From positions 85,560-149,559 of the forward strand of contig CAZLAD010000002.1 in NCBI GenBank assembly GCA_964557535.1: a stretch of 64,000 bases of DNA, given 5' to 3'. The notes below the pieces were generated by a model, which was not told the DNA's origin, made no database searches, and saw nothing but the letters and a program-made list of their open reading frames with translations. Shown one piece after another: positions 11,789-38,290 of the stretch. The translations under genes were made by a program, and so were the position numbers. Source of the stretch: an uncultured Candidatus Saccharibacteria bacterium. GTDB lineage: Bacteria; Patescibacteriota; Minisyncoccia; Phycocordibacterales; CSBR16-119. Within the stretch, counting starts at the first letter, position 1. Every line of letters begins with the position of its first letter.

Positions 11789-11817
11789 CCCGTTAGAGAT
11801 AGCAAACTTTCGTTTGC
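11789..11817 (-). promoter_or_regulatory. proximal half of the leader-helix motif (AUCUCUAACGGG-AUG) plus hairpin GCAAAC-GAAA-GUUUGC upstream of pilT
   Basis: CCCGTTAGAGAT sits directly 3' of the pilT start codon on the plus strand. The hairpin co-varies with the pilN copy. Confidence 0.5.
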
Positions 11818-11869
11818 GTATCTAATTTATTATTTTGTAAATAATCGACGACCATCTGATTTAATCTAA

Positions 11870-13618
11870 TTAAAACTTATAAACTTCAGTTATCGGAATT
11901 TGGCCGTTTACAGCCTTGATCAAAGCATCTTCTTTCATCGTAAGCATTCCCTTTGATCTAACAACGGCGTGAATGTCGAGCTCTGTCGGTGATTTCAATA
12001 TTGCCGACTCAACGTCTTTGTCTACTTCAAACATTTCAAAAATCGCCATACGTCCTCTTGTTCCCGAAGGACAGGTTGCTGAAGGCACTGTCTTAATCAT
12101 TTTATCACCTATTTTTATTTTTGCTCTATGTTCTGCTGGAAAATCAGCAAATTCTTTGTTGATAATTGCAGAAATAGATTCATCCATAGGCACTTCTTCG
12201 CGTGCATCTTCGCAGGTCTTCTTTGCAAGTCTCTGAGCAATCGCGAGTACAAGTGTCGGTGCAATCAAAAATGGATCAACACCCATGTCGATAAGACGTG
12301 GGATTGCTCCAGCTGAGTTGTTGGTGTGGAGCGTCGATAATACCAAGTGACCGGTCAATGCCGCTTGTATGGCAAGTGAGGCCGTTTCCTTGTCGCGAAT
12401 TTCTCCAACAAGAATAACGTCCGGATCTTGGCGCAAAATTGAACGAAGTCCCGAGGCAAAAGTATACCCGATTTCCGGCATAACCTGAGACTGACTAACG
12501 CCGTCGACATGATATTCGACTGGATCTTCAAGGGAGACGACGTTTTTGGATTCGCGATCGATTTCGTTTAGCATGGCGTATAGGGTCGTAGTTTTACCGG
12601 AACCTGTCGGACCCGTAATCAAAACAATTCCGTAAGGCACTTCTAGTGCGCGCTTCACCATCTCTAGATGTTCTGAAGTCATATCGAGATCTTCCAGACT
12701 TTTTACGCCCTTTTCTGCATCCAAAATTCGCATAACGACTTTTTCTCCATAATACGCAGGGAAAGTCGAAACACGTAAATCAATTTTGCGTCCATCAATT
12801 TTTGCCGTGAATCCACCGTCTTGGGGTTTGCGTTTTTCGTCGAGACGGAGTTTGGATAGTATTTTTATACGCGCGACAACCCCAGAATAGACATTTAGGG
12901 GGAGAGTGAGCGAGGTGTGCAATTCCCCATCAACACGAAAACGGACTTTGACTTCTTTGCCGGTATTTTCGATATGAATATCAGAAGCCATTCCTTCGAC
13001 AGCGTGGCGTAAAATGACGGCGACGACTTTGATGATAGGTGCTTCTTCGACAATCTTTCTCTCGTCGACTTCCTCGGCTTCGGTCTCAGAAATTCTCGAA
13101 CCCTTGGCATTCTTTTGATCTCTCATTTGGGCTTCGGCTTGAGACAACTCGGTATCAAGATCCGAAAGGGCCTGATCAACCTCTCCGGTCATTCCTCGAT
13201 AGCTATCCAAAACAGCGTCATAGGTCTTTTTGGTTATAACAAAAAGTTTATATGGGAGTTCATTTCTAGAAGAAATAAATTGTAAAGCATCAAGCGAATC
13301 GGTTCTGGCGGGATTGACGATTCCCACTTCCAAAACTTTATCTTTGAGTCCAACCGGCACGAACCCATACTGACGAGCTGAATCTTCGGATAGATACTCC
13401 AAAACCCTAGGGTCAAGTTCTTTTTGAGTAACAGACTTTGAAGGAATGCCAAAGAACTGGCTCTTGAAAGCAAGTAGTGCTTCATCATCGATATCTGTTT
13501 CTTTGGCCAAAGCCTCATCGACGTCACCGTTGTATTTTTTTTGAGCAGCTGTGGAAACCCGTGCCAACAACTCTGGCGTCAAAAGACCTTGTTTGACGAG
13601 TCCCTCAAGAAAACTCAT
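11870..13618 (-). CDS. pilB: type IV pilus assembly ATPase PilB (GspE family)
   Basis: Walker A TGPTGSGKTTT. LVLSTLHTNNSAGAIPRL. N-terminal GSPII domain. 582 aa. Confidence 0.92.
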   Translation of the reverse strand: MSFLEGLVKQGLLTPELLARVSTAAQKKYNGDVDEALAKETDIDDEALLAFKSQFFGIPSKSVTQKELDPRVLEYLSEDSARQYGFVPVGLKDKVLEVGIVNPARTDSLDALQFISSRNELPYKLFVITKKTYDAVLDSYRGMTGEVDQALSDLDTELSQAEAQMRDQKNAKGSRISETEAEEVDERKIVEEAPIIKVVAVILRHAVEGMASDIHIENTGKEVKVRFRVDGELHTSLTLPLNVYSGVVARIKILSKLRLDEKRKPQDGGFTAKIDGRKIDLRVSTFPAYYGEKVVMRILDAEKGVKSLEDLDMTSEHLEMVKRALEVPYGIVLITGPTGSGKTTTLYAMLNEIDRESKNVVSLEDPVEYHVDGVSQSQVMPEIGYTFASGLRSILRQDPDVILVGEIRDKETASLAIQAALTGHLVLSTLHTNNSAGAIPRLIDMGVDPFLIAPTLVLAIAQRLAKKTCEDAREEVPMDESISAIINKEFADFPAEHRAKIKIGDKMIKTVPSATCPSGTRGRMAIFEMFEVDKDVESAILKSPTELDIHAVVRSKGMLTMKEDALIKAVNGQIPITEVYKF

Positions 13619-13691
13619 ATTAAAAAGAGGTTAAATTTTCTAATATTCCATGAACAACGACTTTTGATTGTAAATTCTTTACTGACATAAT

Positions 13692-14423
13692 TTACATATT
13701 TCTTTGAATAAATTCACCAAAAGCGTTTTTGTCTTCACTTGAAATTGTTCCGCCAAGTACCTCAACTGTCACATTTTTCAAACAGGTTTTTGTTGACACA
13801 CCATACTGAAAAGCGCCAAACGAACCAGTAGTGCAAGAAGATTGTGGTCCACCATAAACAACCGACAAACCATTTGGTAACTTAAACGTATAACCAACTA
13901 TCGGCGGTGGTGTTACGCCCTGCGCGCTGTAATTTATAGTAGTCGGTGTCCAAGAACTAGGATAAAAAATATCGGTATTACCAAGTTTTACAGCACTCCA
14001 CGCCTCCGGACCAGGAGTAAATATGACATCTCCTCCAGACCCCAAACCAGTATCAGTATTGTCAGCTCCAAAAGGGGCAAATGGATTTGGACGACCTTCG
14101 TTGCCCGGCTGGACAAGCGTGATACTGAAATCTTGTAGTGACTGGAAAGCGAGTGAGGAAAAAATATCATCATTTAATTTAATAGCTTTTAGATTGATTA
14201 GCTGATTGACAAACTCTTGGCTAATCTTGTTGGCTTCTGCTCCTGTTAGGGGGTTTGGATTTACAATTGAACTAACTGGACTACTGCCGGCCGAGGTTTC
14301 GAGGGTGTTGTTTGGTGTCACCGTCTGAACATTTTTTGTTTTACCGAAAAATAGAAAATACGCCAGTCCCAACAGAGCCAAAATTATAACGAAGATTATT
14401 ATGTTTTTGATATTCTTACCCAT
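13692..14423 (-). CDS. membrane-anchored hypothetical protein in the pilus operon
   Basis: N-terminal TM helix, Ser/Thr/Gly-rich extracellular region. Sits between pilO and pilB. Confidence 0.55.
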   Translation of the reverse strand: MGKNIKNIIIFVIILALLGLAYFLFFGKTKNVQTVTPNNTLETSAGSSPVSSIVNPNPLTGAEANKISQEFVNQLINLKAIKLNDDIFSSLAFQSLQDFSITLVQPGNEGRPNPFAPFGADNTDTGLGSGGDVIFTPGPEAWSAVKLGNTDIFYPSSWTPTTINYSAQGVTPPPIVGYTFKLPNGLSVVYGGPQSSCTTGSFGAFQYGVSTKTCLKNVTVEVLGGTISSEDKNAFGEFIQRNM

Positions 14424-14426
14424 TTT

Positions 14427-15068
14427 TTAATCCTTAAGACGATAAGTATTAATCTTGAACAAATATTTATATTGATCGGTATAAACTTTGTCCTTTTCAG
14501 AAGTTCCTGGGGTGAAAGTAATAGACTGAATATCGATCAGACGCAAACTTCTCTCCATCAGCCCCATAAAAGCCACGAAATCTTTGTATGAACCCTCGAC
14601 AGAAAATTGAAGTTCGAAAATATCGTAATCCAAGTTGTCTGTTGGCGATACGGCTGTTCGACGAACCGGCGTGGTCGCTGTAGTAGAAGTTGTTGAGGCG
14701 GTGTTTTCTGTTGATCCTTCTGGTTTTTCTTCTTCCTCTTCCACGAATTGCTTTGGCTCAAATTGGACGTTTCTGACAACGATGCCTTGGTTGGAGGCTT
14801 GTTCTTGGATCTCTAAAATAAGTTTGATGTTATCAACAGTGTCTGGTAACATTTTTTCTAATTTTGCCAAATCTTCTGGGGCAAAACTATTCAATTTGGT
14901 GGTCAAACGATCGCGTTCTTTTTGGAGGTTTGCAGAATTTTGTAGGGCTTGCTCGTAAGCCTCACTCTCCTTCTGGATAGTTTCGATTTCAGAATATATG
15001 GGTTTTGTAATAAGGATAAATCCCCCGATTCCAACCCCTATTAAAACTATTGGTAATAACCATTTCAT
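14427..15068 (-). CDS. pilO: PilO-like pilus assembly protein
   Basis: N-terminal TM, coiled-coil, acidic low-complexity linker. Position in pilMNO. Confidence 0.6.
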   Translation of the reverse strand: MKWLLPIVLIGVGIGGFILITKPIYSEIETIQKESEAYEQALQNSANLQKERDRLTTKLNSFAPEDLAKLEKMLPDTVDNIKLILEIQEQASNQGIVVRNVQFEPKQFVEEEEEKPEGSTENTASTTSTTATTPVRRTAVSPTDNLDYDIFELQFSVEGSYKDFVAFMGLMERSLRLIDIQSITFTPGTSEKDKVYTDQYKYLFKINTYRLKD

Positions 15069-15071
15069 AAA

Positions 15072-15767
15072 TTAACTTTGATTAGGCATCACATTAGAAG
15101 CATCATCTGTTGGTAATGTTGGCGATACGGGCAATGTTTCGGGTATTATTTCTGGCTCGTTCAATGATTGCTGTCTTTCTAGGAAAGATTCATACACGAC
15201 CAGAGACTTGTCCACAGAAAAAGTTAGGTTGAAAGAAATGTTCCCGAACTGATCAAGTGTAAAACTAGAAAATATTGGATTTTTAATGAAATTATTTTGA
15301 GCAAAGAGATCCGACTGCAATGCAATATAATTATAACCTTTTGCTTGACCGTTTATCTTTATATTAACAAGATTTGGATTTTGTTTATTGAATTCATAAG
15401 AGAAATCAGAATAACGAACTGTCGGAAGAGTAATTTCACCCAAAAGAGAAAATATAGGTGAAACAGCAACATGATTATCTAAAATTATCGTAGACGCCTT
15501 CATGCGCTTATCTAGAAGTTGGAGTTTTGTTATAAGTGTTGGCTCAAAAGCCGCTTTCGCTCTGACCAAAGATTCTTTGTAGGACTCCAGAGTATTTAAA
15601 AGAGAAGAACGATAGAAATAAACCCCTCCGGCACCCAAAATTGAAGCGATAAAAATCAAAAGCGCCAAAAGATTTAATAGACCACCAAAACCACCCCCCG
15701 AACGCTTTGGTTCGCGCTCTGCTATCGTTTTTTTAGGTACAAAAGATGTTTGAAATTCTTTATCCAT
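15072..15767 (-). CDS. pilN: PilN-like pilus assembly protein
   Basis: Single N-terminal TM after a basic cytoplasmic segment, periplasmic domain. Follows pilM. Confidence 0.6.
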   Translation of the reverse strand: MDKEFQTSFVPKKTIAEREPKRSGGGFGGLLNLLALLIFIASILGAGGVYFYRSSLLNTLESYKESLVRAKAAFEPTLITKLQLLDKRMKASTIILDNHVAVSPIFSLLGEITLPTVRYSDFSYEFNKQNPNLVNIKINGQAKGYNYIALQSDLFAQNNFIKNPIFSSFTLDQFGNISFNLTFSVDKSLVVYESFLERQQSLNEPEIIPETLPVSPTLPTDDASNVMPNQS

Positions 15768-15883
15768 CCCGTTAGAGATAGCAAATCTTTAGATTTGCGT
15801 ATCTTTTTTATTATTCTTTGAGTAATTCACGACCATATTTTTGTATCTTTTGTGATTAACTTTAACTATAACATCTCTAACGG
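15768..15883 (-). promoter_or_regulatory. structured 5' leader upstream of pilN, closed by the 12/11-bp helix CCGUUAGAGAU ... AUCUCUAACGGG, ending directly at the AUG
   Basis: Plus-strand CCCGTTAGAGAT at 15768-15779 and ATCTCTAACGG at 15873-15883. Internal hairpin GCAAAUC-UAAA-GAUUUGC. TAGAAT sits 10 nt upstream of the distal half. Confidence 0.6.
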
Positions 15884-15896
15884 TATCCATAAAATT

Positions 15897-17036
15897 CTAT
15901 ACTAATTCTCTGAGTGCGAGTCCAGCTGCAACTCCAAACTCTGGACCAGATTCAGCTAAAATGTTTTCCAGAAACGCCGGTGCTTCGATCTGCGCAAATG
16001 AATTACCCATTGATACTTCTGTTCCGAATTTTTCCTTTGCTATCGGCAGAATACCTTTTAACAAAACTCCGCCACCAGTAAGTATAACTTTGTCGATGCT
16101 TTTATTATACTTCTTTTCATAATTCAACACCACATTACCTGCTTCAAAAAAAATATAATCAAGCGTCGATTGTATAACGGCAGACGCTTTAGGTTGTTTA
16201 GGATTATCATTTAATCCAAATTCTTTTTTCATATTTTCAGCATCATGAAAACTCAAACCCAAAGCCGTAACCATAGAGGCGGTGATATCGTGCGAGCCAC
16301 GATTAATTATGTGGAAGTCCTGAATAATGCCACGATCGACTATTGAAATCTTAGTTTTGGCTGCACCAATATCGAGTACCATCGATGTAGCGAGATCTCG
16401 TCCGAGACTTGAGCGCACAGAAGAAAACATTTCAATCTCAAAAAATTCCGTCGAGAGTTTGGCGTCAGCCACGAGACTTTTGTACTTATCGAGCGCTTCA
16501 TTGTGAATTGCGGCAACCAGTACTTTGGTTTTTTCTTGTTGCATATCGCCCGTGGTTGGTTTGTCTGAATCGTCTGTTAAATTATCGAGCGGACGTTTTG
16601 GCACAAGCCACCAATCAATAGACACTTCAGTGATTGGAACGGGAATGTAACGCCTGGCTTCGTTGTAAATAATCGAAGAAATATCTTTTTCATTTATATT
16701 TCCTGGAAGCTCCACTAGAAAAACAAGAGAGGCTGACGCGGGTATCGACATGGCGGAGTTATGAGTTGTTATATTTGCTTCCAGAAACAAATCATTCAGG
16801 GCTTTGACCAGCGCCTCTTCTGGGACAGATATTACTTGTCCGGCCTCGCCTTCTGCGTATGGGGCAACAGAAATAGAACCGTAAGTTTCCAAAACTGCTC
16901 TACCAGAAACTTTCTTGATCTGAACAACTTTTATAGCCGAAGCACCAACATCAATACCAATGACGCTTCCGCTGGAACCACTTTTTAAAACCCCAGAGAG
17001 TTTACCCAAGAGCCCTTTTAGCACTCCTTCTAACAT
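15897..17036 (-). CDS. pilM: type IV pilus assembly ATPase-like protein PilM (actin/FtsA fold)
   Basis: IGIDVGASAIKVVQI phosphate-1 motif, FtsA-like. 379 aa. Confidence 0.85.
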   Translation of the reverse strand: MLEGVLKGLLGKLSGVLKSGSSGSVIGIDVGASAIKVVQIKKVSGRAVLETYGSISVAPYAEGEAGQVISVPEEALVKALNDLFLEANITTHNSAMSIPASASLVFLVELPGNINEKDISSIIYNEARRYIPVPITEVSIDWWLVPKRPLDNLTDDSDKPTTGDMQQEKTKVLVAAIHNEALDKYKSLVADAKLSTEFFEIEMFSSVRSSLGRDLATSMVLDIGAAKTKISIVDRGIIQDFHIINRGSHDITASMVTALGLSFHDAENMKKEFGLNDNPKQPKASAVIQSTLDYIFFEAGNVVLNYEKKYNKSIDKVILTGGGVLLKGILPIAKEKFGTEVSMGNSFAQIEAPAFLENILAESGPEFGVAAGLALRELV

Positions 17037-17093
17037 ATATAGTAAAATTGTATCACAATATAATGATTGATATGGTTAAATTTGTTGATAATT

Positions 17094-17741
17094 ATGAGGA
17101 GTTTGATTAAAAAATTCTTTGCTAGCCTCTTTCCCGCCAAATGCGTGGTCTGTCGATCTTTTGGAACATTTATTTGTGAAAAAGATTTACGACAAATTCC
17201 CTTGTGCGCCAGACCAGACAAGGATTGGATTATTTCTGTTTGGAGCTACAAAAGCCCAGTGATTAAAAAACTTCTCTGGATGCTTAAATTTGAAAACAAG
17301 TTTGCCGTCATCGATGATATCGGCCAAAGTCTTTACGATCACCTCTTTGATGAGCTCACCGAACGGAGTATTTTTGACAATACCCAATCCCCAATTCTCG
17401 TCCCCATTCCACTTTCAAAGAAAAGTTTGCGTCGTCGCGGATACAACCAGTCAGAAATAATCGCAAAAGACCTAAGCGTGCGAAGTCAGGATAGATTGGT
17501 TGTAGAAAATATTTTGAAAAAAATAAAAGAAACGCCGACACAACATTCGATAAAAAATCGCAGTGTTAGGTTGCGAAATCTTCAAAATTCTTTTGCGATT
17601 AAAGATGACGTGTCGTTAAAAGGTAAAAATATAATTCTCGTTGATGACATAACGACTACGCACGCAACGCTTGTCGAAGCCAGACGAACGCTCAAAAACG
17701 CCGGAGCACGGAGCGTGATTGGATTTACCGTGGCGCACTAA
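17094..17741 (+). CDS. comFC: ComF-family phosphoribosyltransferase (competence protein ComFC-like)
   Basis: N-terminal Cys pairs (CVVCRS...C), C-terminal PRTase motif ILVDDITTTHATL. ATG at 17094 (MRSLIKKF); the track start at 17067 is a TTG. Confidence 0.8.
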   Translation: MRSLIKKFFASLFPAKCVVCRSFGTFICEKDLRQIPLCARPDKDWIISVWSYKSPVIKKLLWMLKFENKFAVIDDIGQSLYDHLFDELTERSIFDNTQSPILVPIPLSKKSLRRRGYNQSEIIAKDLSVRSQDRLVVENILKKIKETPTQHSIKNRSVRLRNLQNSFAIKDDVSLKGKNIILVDDITTTHATLVEARRTLKNAGARSVIGFTVAH

Positions 17742-17937
17742 TGGCGCTTTGTAGAACTTGAATTTTCTAACTCCAAAGAAGCGGGTTTTTGATGTTCTTG
17801 TACTTCCCGATCATCGATCTTCTATTTCTCACGAATATATTTTAGCATGTCTAAATAGTCGGTTTTTGTTTCGAATATCACCTGCTCGCGCGCCGACACC
17901 TCAATCAAATGACAAAAGTCATTTTCTTGAGTCATTG

Positions 17938-18024
17938 CGGAGACGAGAGGATTCGAACCTCCGAGGGCTTTTACACCCTACCTCGTTAGCAGTGAGGCGC
18001 TTTCGACCACTCAGCCACGTCTCC
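17938..18024 (-). tRNA. tRNA-Ser (anticodon GCU), class II with long variable arm
   Basis: Reverse complement folds as acceptor GGAGACG/CGTCTCC, D-loop GAGTGGTCGAA, anticodon loop CUGCUAA, long variable arm, T-loop GGAGGTTCGAATCCTCT. No encoded CCA. Confidence 0.85.
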
Positions 18025-18182
18025 ATGAGGCTCACATTAACATAAAATATGTGTATAATAAACCCGCGTAAATGGATGATTGGATGAGATGGGCAAGACA
18101 CAAACTGCTTTGTGTCGAGCCGGAGCCGAAAGCTCCGACCACGAATCCAATTGTCCCGAAGGGCGACAACGCAAAGCATGTT

Positions 18183-18269
18183 GGAGGATTGGATGAGTGG
18201 TTTAAATCAGCGGTTTACTAAACCGCCGGCTGGTAAAACGGCCCGTGAGTTCGAATCTCACATCCTCCG
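18183..18269 (+). tRNA. class II (Ser-like) tRNA with apparent ACU anticodon (unusual; possible pseudo- or atypical tRNA)
   Basis: Acceptor GGAGGAT/ATCCTCC, T-arm GTGAG-TTCGAAT-CTCAC, anticodon arm GCGGT-UUACUAA-ACCGC, long variable arm. Shares the GAGTGGT D-loop with the neighbouring tRNA-Ser. Confidence 0.6.
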
Positions 18270-18289
18270 CAAATTTTCTAAAAAAGCAA

Positions 18290-18311
18290 CCCCGGGCACT
18301 GTGGCCCGGGG
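18290..18311 (-). terminator. GC hairpin CCCCGGGC-ACUGUG-GCCCGGGG followed (minus strand) by a U-tract
   Basis: 8-bp GC stem. The minus strand continues UUGCUUUUUUAG. Lies 25 nt downstream of the small minus-strand ORF. Confidence 0.6.
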
Positions 18312-18335
18312 TATGAGGAGGTTGACCCTCTCGGA

Positions 18336-18446
18336 TCAACTACCAATGGTTAAAATCATGCACAGACAGATGAGGAAGACTACCACGAAAAGTCTTGGTC
18401 TCGTGGTGATCTCATCAAACAGATGCCAGCTGTACTCGGTCTTCAT
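18336..18446 (-). CDS. 36-aa hydrophobic peptide (MKTEYSWHLFDEITTRPRLFVVVFLICLCMILTIGS), candidate small membrane protein or type-I-toxin-like
   Basis: Not in the ORF track (under 60 aa). ATG 18446, TGA 18336-18338. Preceded by TTGACC-N16-TATTAT (18466-18493, minus strand) and followed by the terminator at 18290-18311. Confidence 0.35.
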   Translation of the reverse strand: MKTEYSWHLFDEITTRPRLFVVVFLICLCMILTIGS

Positions 18447-18465
18447 GGTGGTGTGGTTTTCCTTC

Positions 18466-18493
18466 ATAATACCCCAAAAGCAAATTTGGTCAA
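18466..18493 (-). promoter_or_regulatory. sigma70-like promoter TTGACC-N16-TATTAT
   Basis: The minus-strand -35 (18488-18493) and -10 (18466-18471) match the consensus. A G-tract block GGGTGTGGGGGTAAGGGGAGAGG lies just upstream. Confidence 0.45.
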
Positions 18494-18659
18494 GATTTAC
18501 CCCCATTTTCCTCTCCCCTTACCCCCACACCCATATTTATGTTTTTTAGGATGTTGTACGTTAGTTATTCTCTGAATATAGGTTTGGACTTGCACTCTCT
18601 AGGGGGAAATAGTGTATAATTAAAGGCGTTAGTAATTTATCAATTTATTTAAGGAAATT

Positions 18660-18920
18660 ATGCCAGCAAAAAAAGCAAACTCTGCATTTATGAAGCCGAT
18701 GACAATCTCTGCTGAACTAGCAGAAGTTGTCGGAAAAGGCCCAATGCCTCGTTCCGAAGTCGTCAAAGCTCTCTGGGCTTACATCAAGAAGAACGATCTT
18801 CAAGATCCAAAGAACAAGAGAAATATCAACGCTGATGCCAAACTCCAAGCCGTATTCGGTGGAAAGAAAGTAGTCAACATGTTTGAGATGACAAAGCTTG
18901 TCTCAAAACACCTTTCTTAA
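18660..18920 (+). CDS. SWIB/MDM2 domain protein
   Basis: 86 aa, ...VVKALWAYIKKNDLQDPKNKRNINADAKLQAVFGG...MFEMTKLVSKHL, typical of the SWIB fold. Confidence 0.7.
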   Translation: MPAKKANSAFMKPMTISAELAEVVGKGPMPRSEVVKALWAYIKKNDLQDPKNKRNINADAKLQAVFGGKKVVNMFEMTKLVSKHLS

Positions 18921-18929
18921 TCTTCCGTA

Positions 18930-18963
18930 GCAATCAAAAAATCCCCGTGAGGGGATTTTTTGA
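18930..18963. terminator. bidirectional rho-independent terminator AAAAAATCCCCGTGAGGGGATTTTTT
   Basis: Perfect hairpin with an A-tract on one side and a T-tract on the other, between convergent genes. Confidence 0.85.
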
Positions 18964-18967
18964 TTGC

Positions 18968-19474
18968 TTAGTTATTTCTTTGTTTATCACCAGGGACATC
19001 ACCTGTTCCAGATGAATAAAGTGTTTTATCTACAAACTTACCCTCTTTATCTCTTCCTATATATTTCCATTTTCCTAATGCTTCTTTATAAGCTTGTGCA
19101 ACTTTTGCACCCTCTGTTACAAGATAGTTTTCGTAAGCTTTTATCAAGGCTGGGTTTTCTTCCATTCTCTTTTCACCAAGCTTTGAATATTTTGCTGATA
19201 GTTGTTCTGGAGCCTGACCAAAAAATCCCATGATCTTACTTTTCAATGCTTCCATTTTGCCACCTTTCTCTGTCGCGGTTTCGGGTGTTTTATTTTCTAG
19301 TTGCCCCTTAGTTGCGTCTGCCCTGATTGCATCAGATGATTCACTGTCAATCATTCCTGTCTTTTCAGCATGTTCAACAGTCATTCCTGAGTCTACCCTC
19401 TCTTTAACGGCCTCATTAGATGTAAGTTCTTCTTTTCTGCCAGGCGCAACTTCTACTTTTGGTGCTTCTCTCAT
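18968..19474 (-). CDS. hypothetical hydrophilic protein (168 aa, Lys/Glu-rich)
   Basis: Long ORF with a TTTGTA-N17-TATAAT promoter upstream (19490-19520, minus strand). No recognisable domain. Confidence 0.55.
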   Translation of the reverse strand: MREAPKVEVAPGRKEELTSNEAVKERVDSGMTVEHAEKTGMIDSESSDAIRADATKGQLENKTPETATEKGGKMEALKSKIMGFFGQAPEQLSAKYSKLGEKRMEENPALIKAYENYLVTEGAKVAQAYKEALGKWKYIGRDKEGKFVDKTLYSSGTGDVPGDKQRNN

Positions 19475-19552
19475 AAAATTTAAAAATTAAATACTAATTT
19501 AGCGTCTTCTAAGAACTGGCTAAATTATACCAAAATCTCCAAAAGCTACAAA

Positions 19553-20695
19553 CTATAACCCTGTAGAAAATATCGCATTTAGTATCTCTTTTGTTTTTGG
19601 CCCCACTACCCCATCAGCTTTTAGACCATTGGCTTTTTGAAAATCCTTGACGGCCTGAAGCGTACACGGACCGAAGTTTCCTGTAAACGGACAGTCGTTC
19701 ATCGTCTTTGGCGGGTAGAAACCAATTTCGCGCAGACCATATTGGAGCGCCATAACGTCATTTGACAGACTCTTGCCTATCGGCTCTTTGCCCCATGAAT
19801 ACAAAAGGTTCTTCATGTCTTGGCGACCATTTAGATAATCATAAATTCCTCGTGTAGTGGCTCTAGCCATAACAAACGCCGACAAATCAAAAACCTCCGG
19901 TCGAGTTTGCGGTTCATAAATGTACGAATACTCGACGAGAACGCTCGGAATCTTTAGCGTTCGGTTTGACCCGAGGGCAATCAGATTAAAATCGGTAATA
20001 ACACCATTTTCGTCGGCCTTGTTCTTCTCGAGAGGCATGTCACTCACCGGAAAAGTCTGTTTCATTCTCTGGCCTATCGCTTCACCGATAATGATGGCGT
20101 CGTCGTGGTTTGGTAAATTTTCATCTGGGACATAAATAGAAAATCCAGAAAAGTCTCCACGCTCTTTTGGAGAATGGTTCGTGTCATCATTGAAATGAAT
20201 ATTGATAATGATATCGAAATCATTTTCACTGGCCCATTTGTTCACCCCATATAGTTGATAAGCAACTGTCGGCAACGCATCCGCGTGCGGAACTTGTTCG
20301 CCGGGATCAATTTCATTTTCACTAATCGCATTTTTAGTGCTTTCTTTGTGATTTTTTATAAATCTATTTATCTCTCGTTCTTCTTCATCAAAATATTCCT
20401 GAATTTCTGGTATATAGCCGTCGTCGTTTCTAGTTACCGTAACGCTTAATTGTGGATCTTTGGTTAGCTCTTCTTTGATCTTGTTGGCAAGTTGTAAATT
20501 TATAGCCTGCTCACTAACACCGTTGAAATATGCCCCCGAATATTTCTTGTCGTGACCTGGAATGACGAGAATTTTAATTGTTTCTCCCGCACGATAACGT
20601 AGAGCGTTTGGCAAAAACGCTTCTTCGCCAAATGACACTTTTGGTAAAAAACCAAAGATTATTATGATGGCGAAAATATTTAATTTCATAATCAA
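19553..20695 (-). CDS. N-acetylmuramoyl-L-alanine amidase (Amidase_3-like) with C-terminal peptidoglycan-binding domain
   Basis: Signal/TM N-terminus, KILVIPGHD zinc-amidase region, C-terminal LQAVKDFQKANGLKADGVVGPKT PG_binding_1 motif. Confidence 0.75.
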   Translation of the reverse strand: MIMKLNIFAIIIIFGFLPKVSFGEEAFLPNALRYRAGETIKILVIPGHDKKYSGAYFNGVSEQAINLQLANKIKEELTKDPQLSVTVTRNDDGYIPEIQEYFDEEEREINRFIKNHKESTKNAISENEIDPGEQVPHADALPTVAYQLYGVNKWASENDFDIIINIHFNDDTNHSPKERGDFSGFSIYVPDENLPNHDDAIIIGEAIGQRMKQTFPVSDMPLEKNKADENGVITDFNLIALGSNRTLKIPSVLVEYSYIYEPQTRPEVFDLSAFVMARATTRGIYDYLNGRQDMKNLLYSWGKEPIGKSLSNDVMALQYGLREIGFYPPKTMNDCPFTGNFGPCTLQAVKDFQKANGLKADGVVGPKTKEILNAIFSTGL

Positions 20696-21498
20696 TGTTT
20701 TATAGGCAAAACAACCCGAAACGTACTGCCGTGTCCCATGCCAGCAGAATACGCGGAAATCTCGCCGTGCAAAGCATGTACTATTTGCCTAGCCAAATAC
20801 AACCCAAGTCCCGAACCAGCCTCGGAAGCTTTCCCGGCTTTGCCACGCAAAAATTTATCAAAAAGCTCCGAAAGCTCCGCCTTATCAATACCAGGACCTG
20901 TGTCTTTGACCTCGACAACGGCCTTGTGATCTGGCTTCTTGAAACTTACACTGATTTCTCCTTTGTTGGTGTACTTAATAGCGTTATCAATCAAATTAAC
21001 AAAAACCTGTCGCAATTTATTTTGATCTGAACGAATAAAACATGGATTGTTATCGCCCTGAAAGACGAGTCTTAGACCCTTGGCCTCGGCCGACATGCGA
21101 AATTCCTCGACCAAACGACCAACGAAATCATGCAAATCAAATTCTTCGAATTTCATGACCATTCCGCCTTGTTCCATTTTTGAAATATCGAGTAAATCAT
21201 TGACTGTGCCGATGAGATCGTCAGTGGTCAAAAGCAGGTGGTTTACCGTTTCTATTGAAAACTTTTCTTTGAGTGAATCTAGTCCCCATTTTATAGAAGT
21301 AAGTGGACTGCGTAACTGATGTGTCGCAAAAGACAAAAATTCGTTTTTCCTTGCATCTAGATCTGTGAGGTTGGTGTTTAATTTCTGGAGCGCGTCTTTC
21401 TGTCGGCCTTGAGCTCTAGAATTTCTGATCAACAAAGCACCGATTGCCATCATAACAAGAAGCGTTCCAGTCAAAACGATATTTAGGGTTGTCTCCAT
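20692..21498 (-). CDS. sensor histidine kinase
   Basis: N-terminal TM, HisKA H-box (ATHQLRSPLTSI), N-box NLIDNAIKYT, DTGPGI, GSGLGLYLARQIV. Overlaps the amidase start by 4 nt. Confidence 0.88.
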   Translation of the reverse strand: METTLNIVLTGTLLVMMAIGALLIRNSRAQGRQKDALQKLNTNLTDLDARKNEFLSFATHQLRSPLTSIKWGLDSLKEKFSIETVNHLLLTTDDLIGTVNDLLDISKMEQGGMVMKFEEFDLHDFVGRLVEEFRMSAEAKGLRLVFQGDNNPCFIRSDQNKLRQVFVNLIDNAIKYTNKGEISVSFKKPDHKAVVEVKDTGPGIDKAELSELFDKFLRGKAGKASEAGSGLGLYLARQIVHALHGEISAYSAGMGHGSTFRVVLPIKH

Positions 21499-21528
21499 GC
21501 AAATATTTTAACACATTTACGAAACGAT

Positions 21529-21556
21529 TTGCGTGTATTTTATAACATAGTAGAAT
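21529..21556 (+). promoter_or_regulatory. sigma70-like promoter TTGCGT-N16-TAGAAT for the receiver gene
   Basis: The -10 ends 9 nt before the first base of the CCCGTTAGAGAT leader element. Confidence 0.5.
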
Positions 21557-21565
21557 TAAGCTCGT

Positions 21566-21681
21566 CCCGTTAGAGATGTTTTGTTTTACATAACTACGAA
21601 AGCGGTGACGTTACTATTTATAAAAGGTTTATCAAAATTTAATCAAGGTACGTCAGCCCAAGACTGACTATCTCTAACGGG
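21566..21681 (+). promoter_or_regulatory. structured 5' leader closed by a 12-bp long-range helix (CCCGUUAGAGAU ... AUCUCUAACGGG), ending 4 nt before the ATG
   Basis: Perfect 12-nt inverted pair at 21566-21577 and 21670-21681. Internal hairpin GUCAG-CCCAAGA-CUGAC at 21652-21668. See findings. Confidence 0.6.
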
Positions 21682-21685
21682 ATAA

Positions 21686-22042
21686 ATGAAAAAAGTTTTA
21701 ATTATCGAAGACGATTCTTTCCTTCAAGGACTAGCCGCGAACAAACTTTCAAAAAGTGATTTTGCCGTTACAACAGCGAGCAAGGGCGAGGACGCGGTAA
21801 CAAAAATAGTCAACGAGAAATTTGACTGTATACTGCTTGACCTTATGCTTCCAGATATTTCAGGATTCGACATTTTGAAAAATATCAAAGACGCTCACCA
21901 AAAAGTCCCTGTCATCGTTTTCTCCAACCTTTCGGACGACAAAGATATCAAAAGAGCCATGGATTTGGGCGCCGAGGAATACCTCATCAAATCAAACTTC
22001 ACTCTCGAAGAACTCGTCGAAAAAGTCAAAAAAGCCGCGTAA
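21686..22042 (+). CDS. stand-alone response-regulator receiver domain protein (CheY-like)
   Basis: DD...D...T...K receiver residues (IIEDD, ILLDLMLPD, VIVFS, K). 118 aa, no output domain. Confidence 0.88.
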   Translation: MKKVLIIEDDSFLQGLAANKLSKSDFAVTTASKGEDAVTKIVNEKFDCILLDLMLPDISGFDILKNIKDAHQKVPVIVFSNLSDDKDIKRAMDLGAEEYLIKSNFTLEELVEKVKKAA

Positions 22043-22065
22043 ACGACCCTTAAAAATCTCCGCAC

Positions 22066-22223
22066 TAAAAACAAGATGTTTTGCCTTAAAAGTCCGTTCT
22101 GTTTGAGGAGTGTCTAAACACTCCGAGTTAACGGATCTTTTTGGCTTAAAACATCTTGTTTTTAGGCTAGATTTTTTCTGGGTCTTGAATTTTTGGTTAC
22201 TTTTGCTTCAAGGCAAAAGTAAC
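22066..22223 (+). promoter_or_regulatory. nested hairpin region between the receiver gene and recG (terminator or attenuator-like)
   Basis: 18-nt perfect inverted repeat CTAAAAACAAGATGTTTT at 22066-22083 and 22148-22165, enclosing hairpin GGAGTG-TCTAAA-CACTCC (22107-22124). A third hairpin GTTACTTTTGC-TTCAAGG-CAAAAGTAAC lies at 22196-22223. Confidence 0.5.
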
Positions 22224-22250
22224 GGAGAGAGCTACTGTATAATAGAACTC

Positions 22251-24455
22251 ATGCAAATCTCGGAAAGGATTGAAGATAATTTTAGATTAACTCCAGACCA
22301 GAAAAAGGCTCTTTCGCGTCTCGGCTTGCAAACGATTGAAGATCTCCTATTTTACTTCCCCACCCGCTACAGCGACATAAGCGAAATCAAACTCATCCGC
22401 GATCTCGTCGCCGGCGATGTCGCGACAGTTTATGGCGAGATAAATAAACTCAAAGTCAAAAAAGCCTTTCGAAGCAAAATACCTATGGCCGAAGGCGTCA
22501 TCGATGACGGCACCGGCCGACTCAAAGTCACATGGTTTAACCAAGCCTACATCGGAAAAATGCTTCACGACGGACAGAAGGTTTCACTAACTGGAAAAAT
22601 TAGCGAAGGCAAATACGGCATGTCGATGTCGAATCCTGAATACGCGCCGACAGCTGGTCTCCCTATCGACATGCACAACACACTTTTCGCTGGAGAAAAT
22701 TCCGAAGAATTTTCATATCCAATTTATCCCGAAACTCGCGGCATCACTTCAAAATGGATTTATCACGCCGTGCAAAAAATTGTTGGGAGTGGAATCATAA
22801 AAAGTCTGAACGAATATATTCCGGAGGAGATTTTAGAAAAGTATCATTTACCGAAACTTTCAACAGCGCTGGTATGGATCCATATGCCAAAGAAAAAATC
22901 TGACGCCGATTCAGCTCGAAAACGTTTTGCCTTCGAAGAAGTTTTTATGATTCAGCTCGAAAAAGCCCGCGAGCGCGAAGAAAATCGCGAGAAAAAATCT
23001 TTTAAAATTTCTGTCGACAAAAAAGATATTCTGGATTTTACAAAACGCTTTCCATTCGAAATGACGGCCGGACAAAAATCAGCAATCGATGACATACTTC
23101 AAGACTTCCAAAAAGAATATCCGATGTCGCGACTTCTCGAAGGAGACGTTGGTTCGGGCAAAACAGCCGTCGCAGCCACGGCAGCGTATGCGGTGATCAA
23201 CAATAAGCCCTTCGACGTTGCTCGGGGCCGTTTGCAGACCTTCGGAAATCTGCAAACGGCCTACATGGCGCCGACGGAGATCTTGGCCAATCAACATTTT
23301 GAAAGTTTTATAAAATATTTTACTCACCCGTCCGAACGAGACGGTTCGGCTCGGGCGGGTACCGGCATCCAGGTCGGACTAATCACCGGCTCGGGATGCA
23401 AGAAGTTTCCGTCAAAAATAAACCCGACGGAGTGGACGGATATTTCAAAAGCCCAACTACTAAAATGGGTGGCCAATGGCGAAATCCCAATCCTTATCGG
23501 CACACACGCCCTCATTTACAAGTCCGTCAAGTTCAAACATTTGGCGCTTACCATCGTCGACGAACAGCATCGCTTCGGAACAAAACAACGCGGCAAATTG
23601 GCGAAAAAAGATGAATTTGCACCACATTTTCTGTCGATGACGGCGACGCCTATTCCCCGCACGCTCGCGCTCACCATCTACGGCGACCTCGATTTGACGC
23701 TCCTAGATGAAATGCCGGCTGGCCGAAAAAAAGTCATCACTGAAATCATCGCGCCCAACAAACGTGACGAAACATATGATTTTATAAAAAGTGAAATGGC
23801 AAACGGTCGCCAGCTCTACGTCATCTGCCCGAGAATTGATGAACCTGATCCGGATAAAGAATTTGCGTTACAGGCAAAGTCGGTCAAAGCCGAGGCACAG
23901 AGATTGAAACGTGAAATTTTCCCCGACAAAACAATCGGCATTCTGCATAGCAAAATGACACCAGCCGAAAAAGAACGCGTCATGGAAAAATTTGAAAAAG
24001 CCGAAATTGATATTTTATGCGCGACGTCAGTCGTCGAAGTCGGCGTGAACGTCCCAAACGCTACACTCATCATAATTGAAGGCGCGGAAAGATTCGGCCT
24101 GGCCCAACTTCACCAGCTTCGTGGACGTGTTATACGTTCGAACCATCAGGCGTATTGTTTCGTCATGCCAGAAAGCGTTAGCAAGAAAAGTGTGGATAGA
24201 TTGAAAGCTTTGAAGACTGCCAAAAATGGATTTGAACTTTCGGAACTCGACTTACAACTTCGCGGTTCAGGAGACCTAGCTGGCATGAAGCAATGGGGCG
24301 TCACAGACCTTGGTATGGAAGCGATCAAAAATATTAAAATGGTCGAAGCCGCGCGAAACGAAGCGCGTGAAATCGTAACCAACAACCTCCTGCCTAAATT
24401 CCCCGCCCTAGAAACTGAATTCCTAAAACGAGAAAAGAAAATTCACTTTGAATAA
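22251..24455 (+). CDS. recG: ATP-dependent DNA helicase RecG
   Basis: Wedge domain, helicase motifs GDVGSGKT, DEQHRFG, TATPIPRTL. ATG at 22251 (MQISER...) sits 7 nt after a TATAAT box; the track start at 22110 is upstream of that box. Confidence 0.92.
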   Translation: MQISERIEDNFRLTPDQKKALSRLGLQTIEDLLFYFPTRYSDISEIKLIRDLVAGDVATVYGEINKLKVKKAFRSKIPMAEGVIDDGTGRLKVTWFNQAYIGKMLHDGQKVSLTGKISEGKYGMSMSNPEYAPTAGLPIDMHNTLFAGENSEEFSYPIYPETRGITSKWIYHAVQKIVGSGIIKSLNEYIPEEILEKYHLPKLSTALVWIHMPKKKSDADSARKRFAFEEVFMIQLEKAREREENREKKSFKISVDKKDILDFTKRFPFEMTAGQKSAIDDILQDFQKEYPMSRLLEGDVGSGKTAVAATAAYAVINNKPFDVARGRLQTFGNLQTAYMAPTEILANQHFESFIKYFTHPSERDGSARAGTGIQVGLITGSGCKKFPSKINPTEWTDISKAQLLKWVANGEIPILIGTHALIYKSVKFKHLALTIVDEQHRFGTKQRGKLAKKDEFAPHFLSMTATPIPRTLALTIYGDLDLTLLDEMPAGRKKVITEIIAPNKRDETYDFIKSEMANGRQLYVICPRIDEPDPDKEFALQAKSVKAEAQRLKREIFPDKTIGILHSKMTPAEKERVMEKFEKAEIDILCATSVVEVGVNVPNATLIIIEGAERFGLAQLHQLRGRVIRSNHQAYCFVMPESVSKKSVDRLKALKTAKNGFELSELDLQLRGSGDLAGMKQWGVTDLGMEAIKNIKMVEAARNEAREIVTNNLLPKFPALETEFLKREKKIHFE

Positions 24456-25861: not shown

Positions 25862-25936
25862 TCCACCCTCCACGACTCGAACGTGGGACCCTCGAGGTAT
25901 AAGCTCGATGCTCTAACCAACTGAGCTAAGGGTGGT
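25862..25936 (-). tRNA. tRNA-Ile (anticodon UAU)
   Basis: Reverse complement: acceptor CCACCCU/AGGGUGG, D-arm GCUCAGUUGGUUAGAGC, anticodon arm UCGAG-CUUAUAC-CUCGA, T-arm CCACG-UUCGAGU-CGUGG, discriminator A. Confidence 0.8.
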
Positions 25937-28508: not shown

Positions 28509-28884
28509 GGGGATGACCGGCTTTGACATTTGATTCCCTTTTGTTAGCGCATGTCGAGCTGAAGTAACTCGTCAAACTGCTTCAAACCCTTAGATGCAAA
28601 ATCTAAAGGACTAGTGAAGTCTCCATTTCAAATGAAGGCTTTCACTCCAGCTTTCGCGTAAGCCAGGGCTGGTGTCATTCATTCTGAATCCTGATACGGA
28701 TGAATGGCATAATAAAATCGGGATAAGCGCTCGGCCTTCTCGCCCGCGCGACAAAAATCTAGAGATCGATTCGTGTTTGTTTTGTTTATCCTATAGAACA
28801 CGTCTCTAAATCAAAAGATAAACTACACATGTAGACCCTAGCAGAAGCATCTTATGGACGGGGGTTCAATTCCCCCCATCTCCA
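28509..28884 (+). ncRNA. ssrA: tmRNA (SsrA)
   Basis: 5' GGGGAUG pairs with 3' CAUCUCC including the G3-U wobble. T-arm GGGGGUUCAAUUCCCCC then ACA. An internal reading frame ends ...QMKAFTPAFA*. Terminator follows. Confidence 0.8.
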
Positions 28885-28890
28885 CAATTA

Positions 28891-34896: not shown

Positions 34897-34897
34897 T

Positions 34898-34959
34898 CCA
34901 TTAGTAAATTAAATTTGTAATTTTTTTATCAACTTATCTTCCGCTGATTTACTAACGGG
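34898..34959 (-). promoter_or_regulatory. variant leader helix upstream of secY (CCCGUUAGUAAA ... UUUACUAAUGG-A-AUG)
   Basis: Same architecture as the pilN and receiver leaders, with compensatory changes on both strands. Confidence 0.55.
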
Positions 34960-34969
34960 ACAAGTCATT

Positions 34970-38170: not shown

Positions 38171-38184
38171 TCGCGGATAAAAAT

Positions 38185-38222
38185 GTATCATTTTTGTGGA
38201 CGGTCGTCTCAAAAAATGATAC
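38185..38222. repeat. long AT-arm/GC-core palindrome, copy 3 (GTATCATTTTTGTGGACGGTCGTCTCAAAAAATGATAC)
   Basis: Near-identical to the palindrome at 1989-2026 downstream of the wHTH-Cas2-like gene. Confidence 0.8.
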
Positions 38223-38290
38223 GCAAGAAAAATTATGAGATATGAAACAAGAAAGCCCGCGGGCGGCTTTCAAGGGCCAAGAGCGGGCTA

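Follow-up and report, generated by a model that had tools for sequence, protein, structure and literature searches.

Among the closest described counterparts of the element analysed here are the MITEs Correia (CREE/NEMIS) of Neisseria, RUP and ERIC. These are non-coding elements of ~100-150 nt that occur in multiple copies and carry terminal inverted repeats (TIRs) and short target duplications; they lie adjacent to genes, are co-transcribed with them, form a long hairpin in the mRNA and are able to supply or abut promoters. In Neisseria, Correia transcripts are cut by an enzyme of the RNase III kind. GIY-YIG domains encoded by selfish genes that sit between host genes and are expressed from host signals are found in the phage T4 seg genes and the intron-encoded I-TevI. 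Stand-alone GIY-YIG proteins of the UPF0213/YhbQ type (COG2827) have, to our knowledge, not been described as cargo of inverted-repeat elements or as start-codon insertions, and we know of no transposition mechanism for a stand-alone 86-aa GIY-YIG protein. Integron attC sites are imperfect inverted repeats of variable length just 5' of the next ORF, with structure partly conserved over sequence and the core order R'' (RYYYAAC) ... R' (GTTRRRY). In CPR bacteria (Patescibacteria), GIY-YIG-encoding non-intron insertions occur in rRNA genes (Tsurumaki et al. 2024, PMC11270868).

The element at positions 21564-21683 of the 64-kb stretch of DNA analysed (the window) resembles Correia, RUP and ERIC in being small, non-coding, multi-copy, adjacent to a gene and bounded by TIRs, and it is predicted to form a long hairpin in the mRNA and to abut a promoter; short target duplications occur in most copies of its family, though not in this one. 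Unlike these MITEs, it lies exactly on start codons with regeneration of the ATG and a fixed orientation to the gene, it has a conserved subterminal hairpin and 12-mer ends that are near-identical over many lineages, and its coding partner is an 86-aa GIY-YIG nuclease, not a DDE transposase. It is very probably a miniature non-coding derivative, a MITE-like relic, of a family of GIY-YIG cassettes that target start codons. The family is characterised by 14-nt TIRs (RT-CCCGTTAGAGAT and ATCTCTAACGGG-AT), a subterminal hairpin (P2) with the consensus TAC-GGAArCG... paired with ...CGyTTCC-T, and insertion exactly at the host start codon. It is apparently undescribed; a literature search found no paper with the motif or such an element, an absence that is in itself no proof.

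The copy upstream of the receiver gene is on the plus strand. Its left TIR (GT + CCCGTTAGAGAT; 21564-21577, with the 12-mer at 21566-21577) provides the 5' arm of a terminal helix, P1, and is followed by an A/T-rich, ORF-free interior (21578-21646), which proved poorly conserved when the 105-135 nt class was aligned. Next comes P2, headed by a conserved 5' anchor (GGTAC-GTCAG-cccaaga-CTGAC-T; 21647-21669); it has a geometry common to all size classes and precedes the right TIR (ATCTCTAACGGG + AT; 21670-21683), the 3' arm of P1. The right 12-mer (21670-21681) is the exact reverse complement of the left one, and in full-length relatives the right-end bases code for the nuclease C-terminus ...SLTG. 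ATAA separates the right 12-mer from the ATG at 21686, which lies 4 nt past the GGG, and the start codon is not duplicated in this copy. The host gene (21686-22042, plus strand) encodes a stand-alone response-regulator receiver domain of 118 aa (Pfam PF00072, E 2.5e-26).

The 12-mer CCCGTTAGAGAT occurs in five exact copies on both strands of the window, compared with 0.00 in 100 shuffles. Five copies of the element lie in the window, and each abuts the start of a gene (gatC, pilT, pilN, the receiver gene and secY); several copies per genome are a feature of MITEs. The non-coding elements of 116-120 nt are small, ORF-free and bounded by inverted ends of 12 bp exact and 14 bp effective length. 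The pilN copy (15768-15890, minus strand) has its right end at 15768-15779, P2 at 15781-15798 and the left end ACCGTTAGAGAT at 15873-15884; the host start ATGGAT is duplicated at 15885-15890, and the real pilN ATG is at 15767. In the pilT copy (11789-11869, minus strand), the right end (11789-11800), P2 (11802-11817) and ~50 nt homologous to the pilN copy are present, and the left end is missing by 5' truncation. Both copies lie within an operon and are 76-88% identical over the repeat-family stretches D10 and D18 detected by a repeat search.

The remaining two copies are divergent or incomplete. A degenerate copy of ~62 nt between glmS and gatC enters the window with its left end (GT + CCCGTTAGAGAT; 2-15, minus strand), the remainder lying past the window edge; in the same-species contigs L201 and L202 it reads ...CCCGTTAGAGAT-38 nt-ATCTTCTAATAGG-ATGGAC (gatC). 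The gatC ORF is miscalled from a TTG and then runs through the element, which creates a spurious N-terminal extension. The TTG start of the neighbouring glmS ORF in the window is also wrong, and the MCGI start was used instead. The gene of ribosomal protein L15 is separated from secY by a variant copy (34897-34968, minus strand; genes assigned by Pfam SecY and L15) with the layout ATGAC-TTGT-CCCGTTAGTAAAT ...37 nt... ATTTACTAATGGA-ATGACA, with both ends altered in concert, a duplicated ATGAC and a fold z of -2.5.

Comparison with close relatives revealed empty sites. In the two closest ones (L001 and L002; PilM 65-74% identical), the pilM-pilN gap is 4-9 nt compared with 129 nt in the window, and the pilB-pilT gap is 10-12 nt compared with 81 nt. 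Their insert-free pilM-pilN junction reads TAA-tttt-ATGGATAAAGAATTTCAA. Among 80 related CPR loci the 12-mer was absent, and with up to 2 mismatches gave scattered single matches, never pairs. The receiver locus is identical across six independent assemblies; neither the receiver copy nor the pilN copy differs between any of the species' assemblies, and no presence/absence polymorphism was seen. Contigs break at repeats of the element, for example L214.

In metagenomes, an inverted pair with identical 12-mer ends was present in 65 of 120 loci, and the same ends flank dozens of unrelated genes. The element lengths showed modes at ~100-135, 180-200 and 260-280 nt, and the 12-mer was nearly invariant over hosts of 31-55% GC. 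An ATG was found within 9 nt upstream of the left end in 42 of 54 copies, in a sample biased to copies adjoining AT(G) by a query that contained 'AT' after GGG. Most of these 54 copies show a target duplication, as do pilN (ATGGAT) and secY (ATGAC). The duplication is 3-7 nt long and normally starts with ATG, unlike that of a classical transposase, and the duplicated bases follow the second codon of the host gene (GG, CG, TA, CA or AG). The sequences fit a 5-bp duplication as well as a model in which AT belongs to the element ends and 1-2 bp are duplicated; neither gives a constant length. A scan of viral contigs for carriage by phages yielded one short copy only.

The constancy of the ends over such a GC range is what recognition by a protein would predict, and the two inverted 12-bp sites could be read as an operator pair between which a DNA-binding regulator forms a loop. 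This is highly improbable, as the spacing of the sites varies from ~20 to 300 nt, a nuclease ORF lies between them, the element is an insertion when compared with close relatives and has target duplications, and no regulator is consistently linked. In all copies examined the interior points the same way with respect to the host ATG, and P2 is invariably on the gene side. Perfect 12-bp inverted repeats around an A/T-rich segment directly 5' of genes are also the layout of an invertible promoter switch, in which a site-specific recombinase flips the segment between the repeats. We consider such a switch scarcely credible and rejected it on the constant orientation, which holds for all family copies and the six assemblies of the species, and on the position of the best -10 outside the repeats; no recombinase was found among the neighbouring genes scanned. 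The element also resembles integron attC in its imperfect inverted repeats, variable length, position just 5' of the next ORF and partial conservation of structure over sequence. An attC site was rejected because the core order is reversed (GTTAGAG...CTCTAAC, compared by eye with the consensus RYYYAAC...GTTRRRY) and the cores agree at 6/7; there was no integrase among the neighbours scanned and no cassette array.

The ~275-nt class of the family carries a coding sequence. Its product is a GIY-YIG nuclease of ~86 aa (Pfam PF01541, E 1e-15 to 1e-19; best 7.6e-19), whose ORF starts 2-9 nt past the left end, or in frame from the duplicated host ATG as MNPVRD.... The last codons of the nuclease, ...RFLSLTG, constitute the right end of the element, and the stop codon TGA overlaps the regenerated host ATG (ATGA). 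In full-length copies, four to seven host bases, as a rule from the ATG on, are duplicated at both sides. In the example L203 the sequence is tattATGAAT/CCCG...GGG/ATGAATACT, and an ATGA overlap links the cassette to the gene that follows. The protein clusters number at least 5687, measure 86 or 95 aa and come from many CPR lineages; the 95-aa forms begin with MNPVRD and nearly all forms finish with SLTG. The only annotation that these ORFs currently carry is 'GIY-YIG nuclease family protein' or the erroneous 'excinuclease ABC subunit C'.

The 86-aa protein matched GIY-YIG-type families alone, with PF01541 above the Pfam threshold and T5orf172 and MUG113 at or below theirs. A separate DNA-binding domain was not detected by Pfam or by comparison with solved structures. 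The best sequence match among solved structures was UPF0213 (PDB 1zg2 and 1ywl; E 1.7e-5), and the closest solved relatives are UPF0213 and Slx1. With UPF0213/YhbQ-type proteins it shares size and single-domain architecture, a relation by sequence only. With the GIY-YIG insertions in CPR rRNA genes (PMC11270868) it shares the host group and the nuclease superfamily, but those insertions sit in rRNA genes. As in the T4 seg genes and I-TevI, the GIY-YIG domain belongs to a selfish gene between host genes and host signals would serve its expression; this domain is found in the full-length relatives alone, the window copies being ORF-free. Unlike seg and I-TevI, the protein is only 86 aa long without a DNA-binding domain, and the element has TIRs and target duplications, occurs at many unrelated loci per genome and has miniature derivatives. 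Classical homing to a single cognate site was rejected, as it fails to explain the many unrelated loci and the miniature derivatives, and the protein has no DNA-binding domain.

The longer copies with the same ends that code for the nuclease would be the autonomous partner of a MITE; none of them lies in the window, where tblastn with three element nucleases gave nothing significant in the 64 kb. An nhmmer model of the full-length copies matched the window at the ends alone. Nor did nhmmer detect homology between the nuclease ORF and the interiors of the window copies, so that the description of these copies as deletion derivatives rests on the ends, P2 and the shared geometry. In miniature copies, we also followed the reading frame that opens at the duplicated ATG; it mostly stops early, and thus no read-through to the host ATG is conserved.

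The ends of the element are predicted to pair with each other. P1 is 14 bp long in the receiver copy, rather than 12, because G21564 and T21565 pair with A21682 and T21683, and it appears in both the MFE and centroid folds (-34.5 kcal/mol, z -3.3); the predicted RNA fold of the pilN copy has -29.7 kcal/mol and a z of -4.3. The two pairs that flank the 12-mer are conserved, with T-A in 52 of 54 copies and A-T or G.T in 51 of 54. P1 is almost invariant, and its covariation is for this reason uninformative. P2, of 5-7 bp, is present in all size classes, where it closes 144-154, 67-76 or 3-7 nt with the common geometry TAC-G[stem]...[stem]-T; the stem sequences differ and their changes are compensated. 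In a set pre-selected for at least 5 pairs, the P2 strands paired in 100% with their own partner compared with 78% with permuted partners. This covariation pattern fits folded single-stranded DNA as well as RNA. A single nucleotide separates the 3' strands of P1 and P2.

Such helices could belong to a dedicated cis-regulatory leader RNA, whose halves form a transcript-initial structure that controls translation or stability of pilus and signalling genes. The presence of P1 in the predicted folds (z -3.3 and -4.3), the covariation of P2 and the -10 box at the right distance in the receiver copy agree with this, as does the closing pair, which is A-U or G.U but never A.C and suggests folding of the sense strand. 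However, the genes concerned are unrelated (gatC, secY, pilT, pilN, the receiver gene and many others), close relatives lack the element at their orthologous pilN and pilT sites, its interior is unconserved and longer copies hold a nuclease gene between the same ends. Two copies, those of pilN and pilT, are moreover intra-operon, with the pilN '-10' formed by the pilM stop region. An Rfam scan at E<=1 covered 20 loci with the element and matched none of the elements, and the gathering scan of the window detected a tmRNA and two tRNAs and nothing else. A dedicated leader RNA is thus very unlikely.

The same helices might also serve as an RNA-processing site, an overlay on the mobile-element reading and not an alternative identity. 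RNase III or a similar enzyme would cut P1 (with P2 directly beside it and perhaps stacked on it); the mRNA would lose the element and again have a short leader or almost none, a form that is translatable without a Shine-Dalgarno sequence. The 14 bp of P1, the 5-7 bp of P2 and the single nucleotide between their 3' strands are compatible with such a cut, the genome favours leaderless-type starts, and Correia elements of Neisseria are processed likewise. CPR rRNA genes also tolerate GIY-YIG-encoding non-intron insertions (PMC11270868). Nevertheless, classical RNase III substrates have ~20 bp, a length that the helix would reach only by stacking of P1 and P2, and the pilT copy persists without its 5' arm, so we regard processing as unlikely.

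A candidate promoter for the receiver gene (21529-21556, plus strand) consists of TTGCGT (21529-21534), a spacer of 16 nt and TAGAAT (21551-21556), with 9 nt (21557-21565) between TAGAAT and the 12-mer. It lies outside the element in the intergenic region between the divergent histidine kinase and receiver genes. The sites score 3/6 (-35) and 5/6 (-10), in total 8/12 and under the threshold of the promoter scan, which found no excess of promoter-like sites in 11000-23000 (25 compared with 22.5 in shuffles). TAGAAT is the best -10-like hexamer on the plus strand of 21471-21700, and it fits the TAnAAT boxes found in the window 6-7 nt 5' of many ATGs. Such leaderless-type boxes occur in a genome stretch in which only 2 of 51 ORFs have SD-like sequences. 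Judged from the sequence, a receiver-gene promoter with TAGAAT as -10 is plausible.

An earlier note on this DNA had given the same positions for the promoter, the 12-mers and the ATG of the receiver gene, and all of them were confirmed, as was the spacing of 9 nt between TAGAAT and the distal half in both the pilN and the receiver copy. It further predicted that transcription starts at the first nucleotide of the distal half; by spacing alone, a -10 of the genome type would put the start 1-3 nt before the 12-mer, at the foot of P1. The pilN copy reads TAGAAT-TTTATGGAT-ACCGTTAGAGAT ... ATCTCTAACGGG-ATG on the minus strand. Here, 'TAGAAT' is TAG, the native stop codon of pilM, plus bases from the intergenic gap, followed by the original pilN start ATGGAT, which is now duplicated. 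As the pilN '-10' is the native pilM stop region, the equal spacing of 9 nt is no evidence of a shared promoter-leader design. The earlier note was right that the repeat is not randomly placed, but it is no leader dedicated to these genes, as the unrelated host genes, the empty sites and the nuclease ORF indicate. Its position is fixed relative to the start codon, not the promoter, and follows from how the element inserts.

For the start-codon-targeting cassette, these observations suggest the following course. A full-length cassette would borrow the initiation site of the host gene, which may matter where Shine-Dalgarno sequences are missing and many genes are leaderless, and it would hand translation back to the host gene via the stop-start overlap. 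Miniature copies would have lost the coding loop enclosed by P2 and kept the ends and P2, which, by MITE logic, may be the cis sites for mobilisation in trans. The receiver copy would constitute the entire 5' UTR of ~120 nt, transcribed from the TAGAAT box of the host. In the modelled RNA, the transcript opens directly with the 14-bp helix formed by the element's ends; P2 lies beside this helix, and AUAA-AUG is left single-stranded. The likeliest consequence would be passive, a tolerated leader that perhaps protects the 5' end, and not a regulated switch.

We propose, tentatively, that the family may represent an undescribed class of prokaryotic mobile element. It would comprise a ~275-bp cassette with an 86-aa Slx1/UPF0213-like GIY-YIG nuclease, 14-bp inverted ends and a subterminal helix, which inserts precisely at start codons, is translated by host initiation with a stop-start return, has spread in many CPR lineages and leaves structured relics as 5' leaders, as at 21564-21683. 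A structure-specific nuclease may act on the folded ends, by a transposition chemistry that would differ from that of known IS families. This raises the question of how an 86-residue nuclease without a DNA-binding domain and folded inverted ends move DNA.

For annotation, the element explains spurious N-terminal extensions (the TTG call of gatC and the 95-aa 'MNPVRD' forms of the nuclease) and contig breaks (L214), and the common motif 5' of pilN, pilT and the receiver gene should not be taken as a regulon signal. If the proposal is true, a very abundant small ORF of CPR bacteria would be carried by a selfish cassette whose strategy is unusual: it seizes a start codon and returns it by translational coupling, which would suit genomes free of Shine-Dalgarno sequences with leaderless mRNAs.

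The left end of the receiver copy of the element, CCCGTTAGAGAT (21566-21577), lies 9 bases after a candidate promoter composed of a -35 hexamer TTGCGT (21529-21534), a 16-nt spacer and a -10 hexamer TAGAAT (21551-21556). Its right end, ATCTCTAACGGG (21670-21681), is the exact reverse complement of the left end and is separated by ATAA from ATG 21686, the start codon of an ORF of 118 aa whose product consists of a receiver domain alone (PF00072, E 2.5e-26). All coordinates reported for this copy in an earlier note agreed with the sequence. The exact 12-mer occurs five times in the window and in none of 100 shuffles.

The match to a promoter is modest (-35 3/6, -10 5/6) and absent from the list of the promoter scan; upstream of the receiver gene, no hexamer resembles a -10 box better than TAGAAT at 21551. 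Of the 51 ORFs with 150 or more codons in the whole window, only 2 have a Shine-Dalgarno sequence, and many window genes display TAnAAT, often TAGAAT, 6-7 nt 5' of their ATG. Such spacing is a signature of leaderless transcripts and suggests that leaderless mRNAs are widespread in this organism. The spacing at TAnAAT genes predicts a transcription start of the receiver gene at about 21563, one base before the 14-bp terminal helix (P1) formed by the paired ends. Since the predicted start adjoins this helix, the proposal of the earlier note that the motif begins the transcript seems reasonable for the receiver copy alone. The similar spacing between TAGAAT and the element in the pilN copy, taken in that note as a shared arrangement, is present on the minus strand (TAGAAT-TTTATGGAT-ACCGTTAGAGAT ... 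ATCTCTAACGGG-ATG); however, this TAGAAT consists of the pilM stop codon TAG and native intergenic bases and is not part of any shared design.

The window genome belongs to the CPR/Patescibacteria, and its closest PilM relatives are Paceibacteria-type MAGs. Its type IV pilus operon on the minus strand comprises pilM, pilN, pilO, an unknown gene, pilB, pilT, pilC and pilin. The pilN copy, with both halves present, separates pilM and pilN, and the distance from the pilM stop to the pilN ATG is 129 nt in the window compared with 4-9 nt in the two closest relatives (TAA-tttt-ATGGATAAAGAATTTCAA in the relative contig L001). The flanks of this copy, ...AATTTT-ATGGAT|ACCGTTAGAGAT ... ATCTCTAACGGG|ATGGAT-AAAGAA, carry ATGGAT on both sides, which shows that the original start of pilN was duplicated around it. 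The pilT copy, between pilB and pilT, retains the gene-proximal half and shares about 50 nt of homologous sequence with the pilN copy (repeat families D10 and D18); here the stop-to-start distance is 81 nt, compared with 10-12 nt in the two closest relatives. The 12-mer was not found in 80 loci of related CPR bacteria, which together span about 1.2 Mb. Judged by these sequence comparisons, the window element is an insertion.

The remaining copies are a degenerate edge copy of about 62 nt at the left edge of the window, located between glmS and gatC as in the contigs L201 and L202 of the same species, and a variant secY copy between the L15 gene and secY (ATGAC-TTGT-CCCGTTAGTAAAT ... ATTTACTAATGGA-ATGACA), in which both ends are altered together. 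In L201, gatC has been called from an intergenic TTG (9926-10288), reading through the element remnant and adding about 29 spurious N-terminal residues (MYILGVTCPVRDFEKL...), and GatC-like sequence begins at the ATG at 10013. A start codon adjoins the element in all five window copies. A leader RNA family failed our tests, as the five genes are functionally unrelated and the pilN and pilT sites of relatives are empty. An inverton likewise failed: the receiver copy has the same sequence and orientation in six independent assemblies and the pilN copy in three, which argues against an invertible switch. The same assemblies gave no sign of recent movement of these two copies.

The receiver locus itself is rearranged. 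In relatives, the histidine kinase gene, the receiver gene and recG all point the same way, and the kinase-receiver gap is about 30 nt, whereas in the window (19553-22042, compared with L052, L007, L037, L080, L069 and L025) the kinase is inverted relative to the receiver gene, with the element at the breakpoint; the window kinase overlaps a downstream amidase gene on the same strand. This rearrangement may account for the missing start-codon duplication at the receiver copy. In three more distant relatives (L080, L003, L004) a receiver-domain gene lies between pilB and pilT, which is found neither in the window nor in the closest relatives.

Public metagenome contigs were scanned once with ATCTCTAACGGGAT; in a collection of that size, an isolated 14-mer match is to be expected by chance. 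Even so, among the 120 loci listed as matches, 65 had both inverted ends within 400 nt; their hosts ranged in GC content over 31-68%, and the lengths had modes of about 100-135, 180-200 and 260-280 nt. The anatomy is constant: a host flank, often -10-like, is followed by ATGNN(T), CCCGTTAGAGAT, a variable interior, TAC-G, stem, loop, stem, T, ATCTCTAACGGG and the ATG of a real ORF, the hairpin always being on the gene side. An ATG lies at most 9 nt upstream of the left end in 42 of 54 two-ended copies, and the bases after it follow the host's own second codon (ATGGAT/ATGGAT, ATGCGT/ATGCGA, ATGTAT/ATGTAT, ATGCAT/ATGCAG, ATGAGT/ATGAGA), giving duplications of 3-7 nt. The query included AT after GGG and biased the sample to AT-adjacent copies, but this cannot produce the G of ATG or the duplication. 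In a subclass comprising the receiver, edge and secY copies and L188, L129, L107 and L162, YYGT replaces (A)T before CCCG; the left flank of the receiver copy (AATTAAGCTCGT) matches that of L188 in 11 of 12 positions. A different repeat family partly shares the 12-mer (GTTTAC-CCCGTTAGAAAT-AATGCCCCGCTG ... ATTTCTAACGGG-GTTTAC) and has several copies per contig in L101, L106, L113, L123, L142, L164 and L168.

The class of about 275 nt codes for a protein of about 86 aa whose catalytic domain is of the GIY-YIG type (PF01541, E 6e-15 to 8e-19); no such ORF is present in the window. Its ATG lies 2-9 nt past the left end, the right end supplies its last codons CTA TCT CTA ACG GGA TGA (...LSLTG*), and its stop overlaps the host ATG(A). 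Relatives form at least 5687 protein clusters (E<=1e-5), with a length of 86 or 95 aa in almost every case; among the matches listed they come from Terry-, Sung-, Taga-, Davies-, Ryan-, Wolfe- and Levybacteria, Minisyncoccia and others, and are annotated generically or mistakenly as UvrC. The 95-aa forms start with MNPVRD, corresponding to the duplicated host ATG, AAT and the left end in frame. The cassette in L203 begins 4 nt past the preceding stop, has an ATGA overlap with the next ORF and carries ATGAAT on both sides. Among solved structures, those of stand-alone UPF0213 proteins are nearest in sequence (1zg2, E 1.7e-5), followed by a weaker match to the structure-specific nuclease Slx1. 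In L191, a full-length cassette (204-479) immediately follows a ribosomal protein L10 leader (494-615; RF00557, 45.7 bits) and appears to separate this known leader RNA from the start of the gene under its control.

Within full-length copies, a further inverted pair of 10-15 bp acts over a long range and closes 144-154 nt, with the arms TAC-GGAArCGyTTTAA (coding for DLRKRF) and TTAAArCGyTTCC-T (coding for NRLKRFL). With the same anchoring, this subterminal hairpin (P2) closes 67-76 nt in the 180-200 nt class and 3-7 nt in the class of about 117 nt, into which the window copies fall. P2 stems vary by compensated changes, as in GCAAATC/GATTTGC of the pilN copy compared with the common GGAAATC/GATTTCC, or GTCAG/CTGAC of the receiver copy. 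The outer five pairs all form with their own partner and to 78% with permuted partners (maximum 86%), in a set pre-selected for at least five pairs. Since P2 with compensated stems is common to all size classes, the miniature copies are best read as probable derivatives that lost the loop enclosed by P2; an nhmmer model of full-length copies matched only the ends of the window copies.

The 12 pairs of P1 hardly vary and, in 54 copies, comprised 638 Watson-Crick, 5 G.U, 3 A.C and 2 other pairs. The two pairs further outward are kept (T-A in 52 of 54; then A-T in 42, G.T in 9 and A.C in none), so that P1 has 14 bp and closes with a purine-U pair. The missing A.C may point to folding of the sense strand (RNA or single-stranded DNA), although only weakly, since the A on the right is at the same time constrained as the first base of the ATG. 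P1 formed in the MFE and centroid predicted RNA folds of the receiver (z -3.3) and pilN (z -4.3) leaders. Tests for an attC site failed.

Other repeats occur in the window. Arrays of 7-nt units such as AGCTAAC and GGCTAAT, often forming large palindromes, immediately precede housekeeping start codons (37680-37760, 41612-41657, 44154-44224, 48863-48953, 56398-56432, 59346-59391), including those of rpsC (40935-41618), nusA (56438) and clpP (59385), and look like a separate upstream-repeat family. A palindrome of about 38 bp, GTATCATTTTTGTGGACG|CGTCCACAAAAATGATAC, occurs at 1983-2028, 2617-2662 and 38179-38224, the first two flanking a PaaX/Cas2-like gene (2029-2613). Two near-identical palindromic, terminator-like hairpins of 34 bp, AATCAAAAAATCCCCGnGnGGGGATTTTTTGATT (18932-18965, 49645-49678), are bordered on each side by T and A runs, like bidirectional terminators. 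A tmRNA gene (28509-28887; RF00023, 150 bits) and tRNA genes (17938-18024, 25862-25935) were also detected.

The family combines inverted ends, P2, a position at start codons, a duplicated host start and a wide CPR distribution. In its long members the interior is taken up by the nuclease ORF, whose stop lies on the regenerated ATG; the pilN and pilT sites of the closest relatives of the window genome are empty. We infer that the cassette would use the initiation site of the host gene for its own expression and that host translation would be restored through stop-start coupling. The ends and P2 would be cis sites recognised for movement, plausibly as a folded structure by an Slx1-like nuclease, and miniature copies would be mobilised in trans. 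The receiver copy would now serve as a 5' UTR, whose 5'-terminal helix may protect the mRNA or be processed. The window element resembles a bacterial MITE co-transcribed with its neighbour, Correia elements being the closest analogue, and its coding partner resembles a free-standing GIY-YIG selfish gene. Unlike homing endonucleases, the ~86-aa nuclease has no DNA-binding domain and no single cognate site. Searches of the literature and Rfam revealed no description of or match to the element; the closest parallel is with rRNA genes of CPR bacteria (PMC11270868), whose non-intron insertions contain GIY-YIG ORFs described as 'outside the context of homing'. The family behind the window element may represent a new kind of mobile element.
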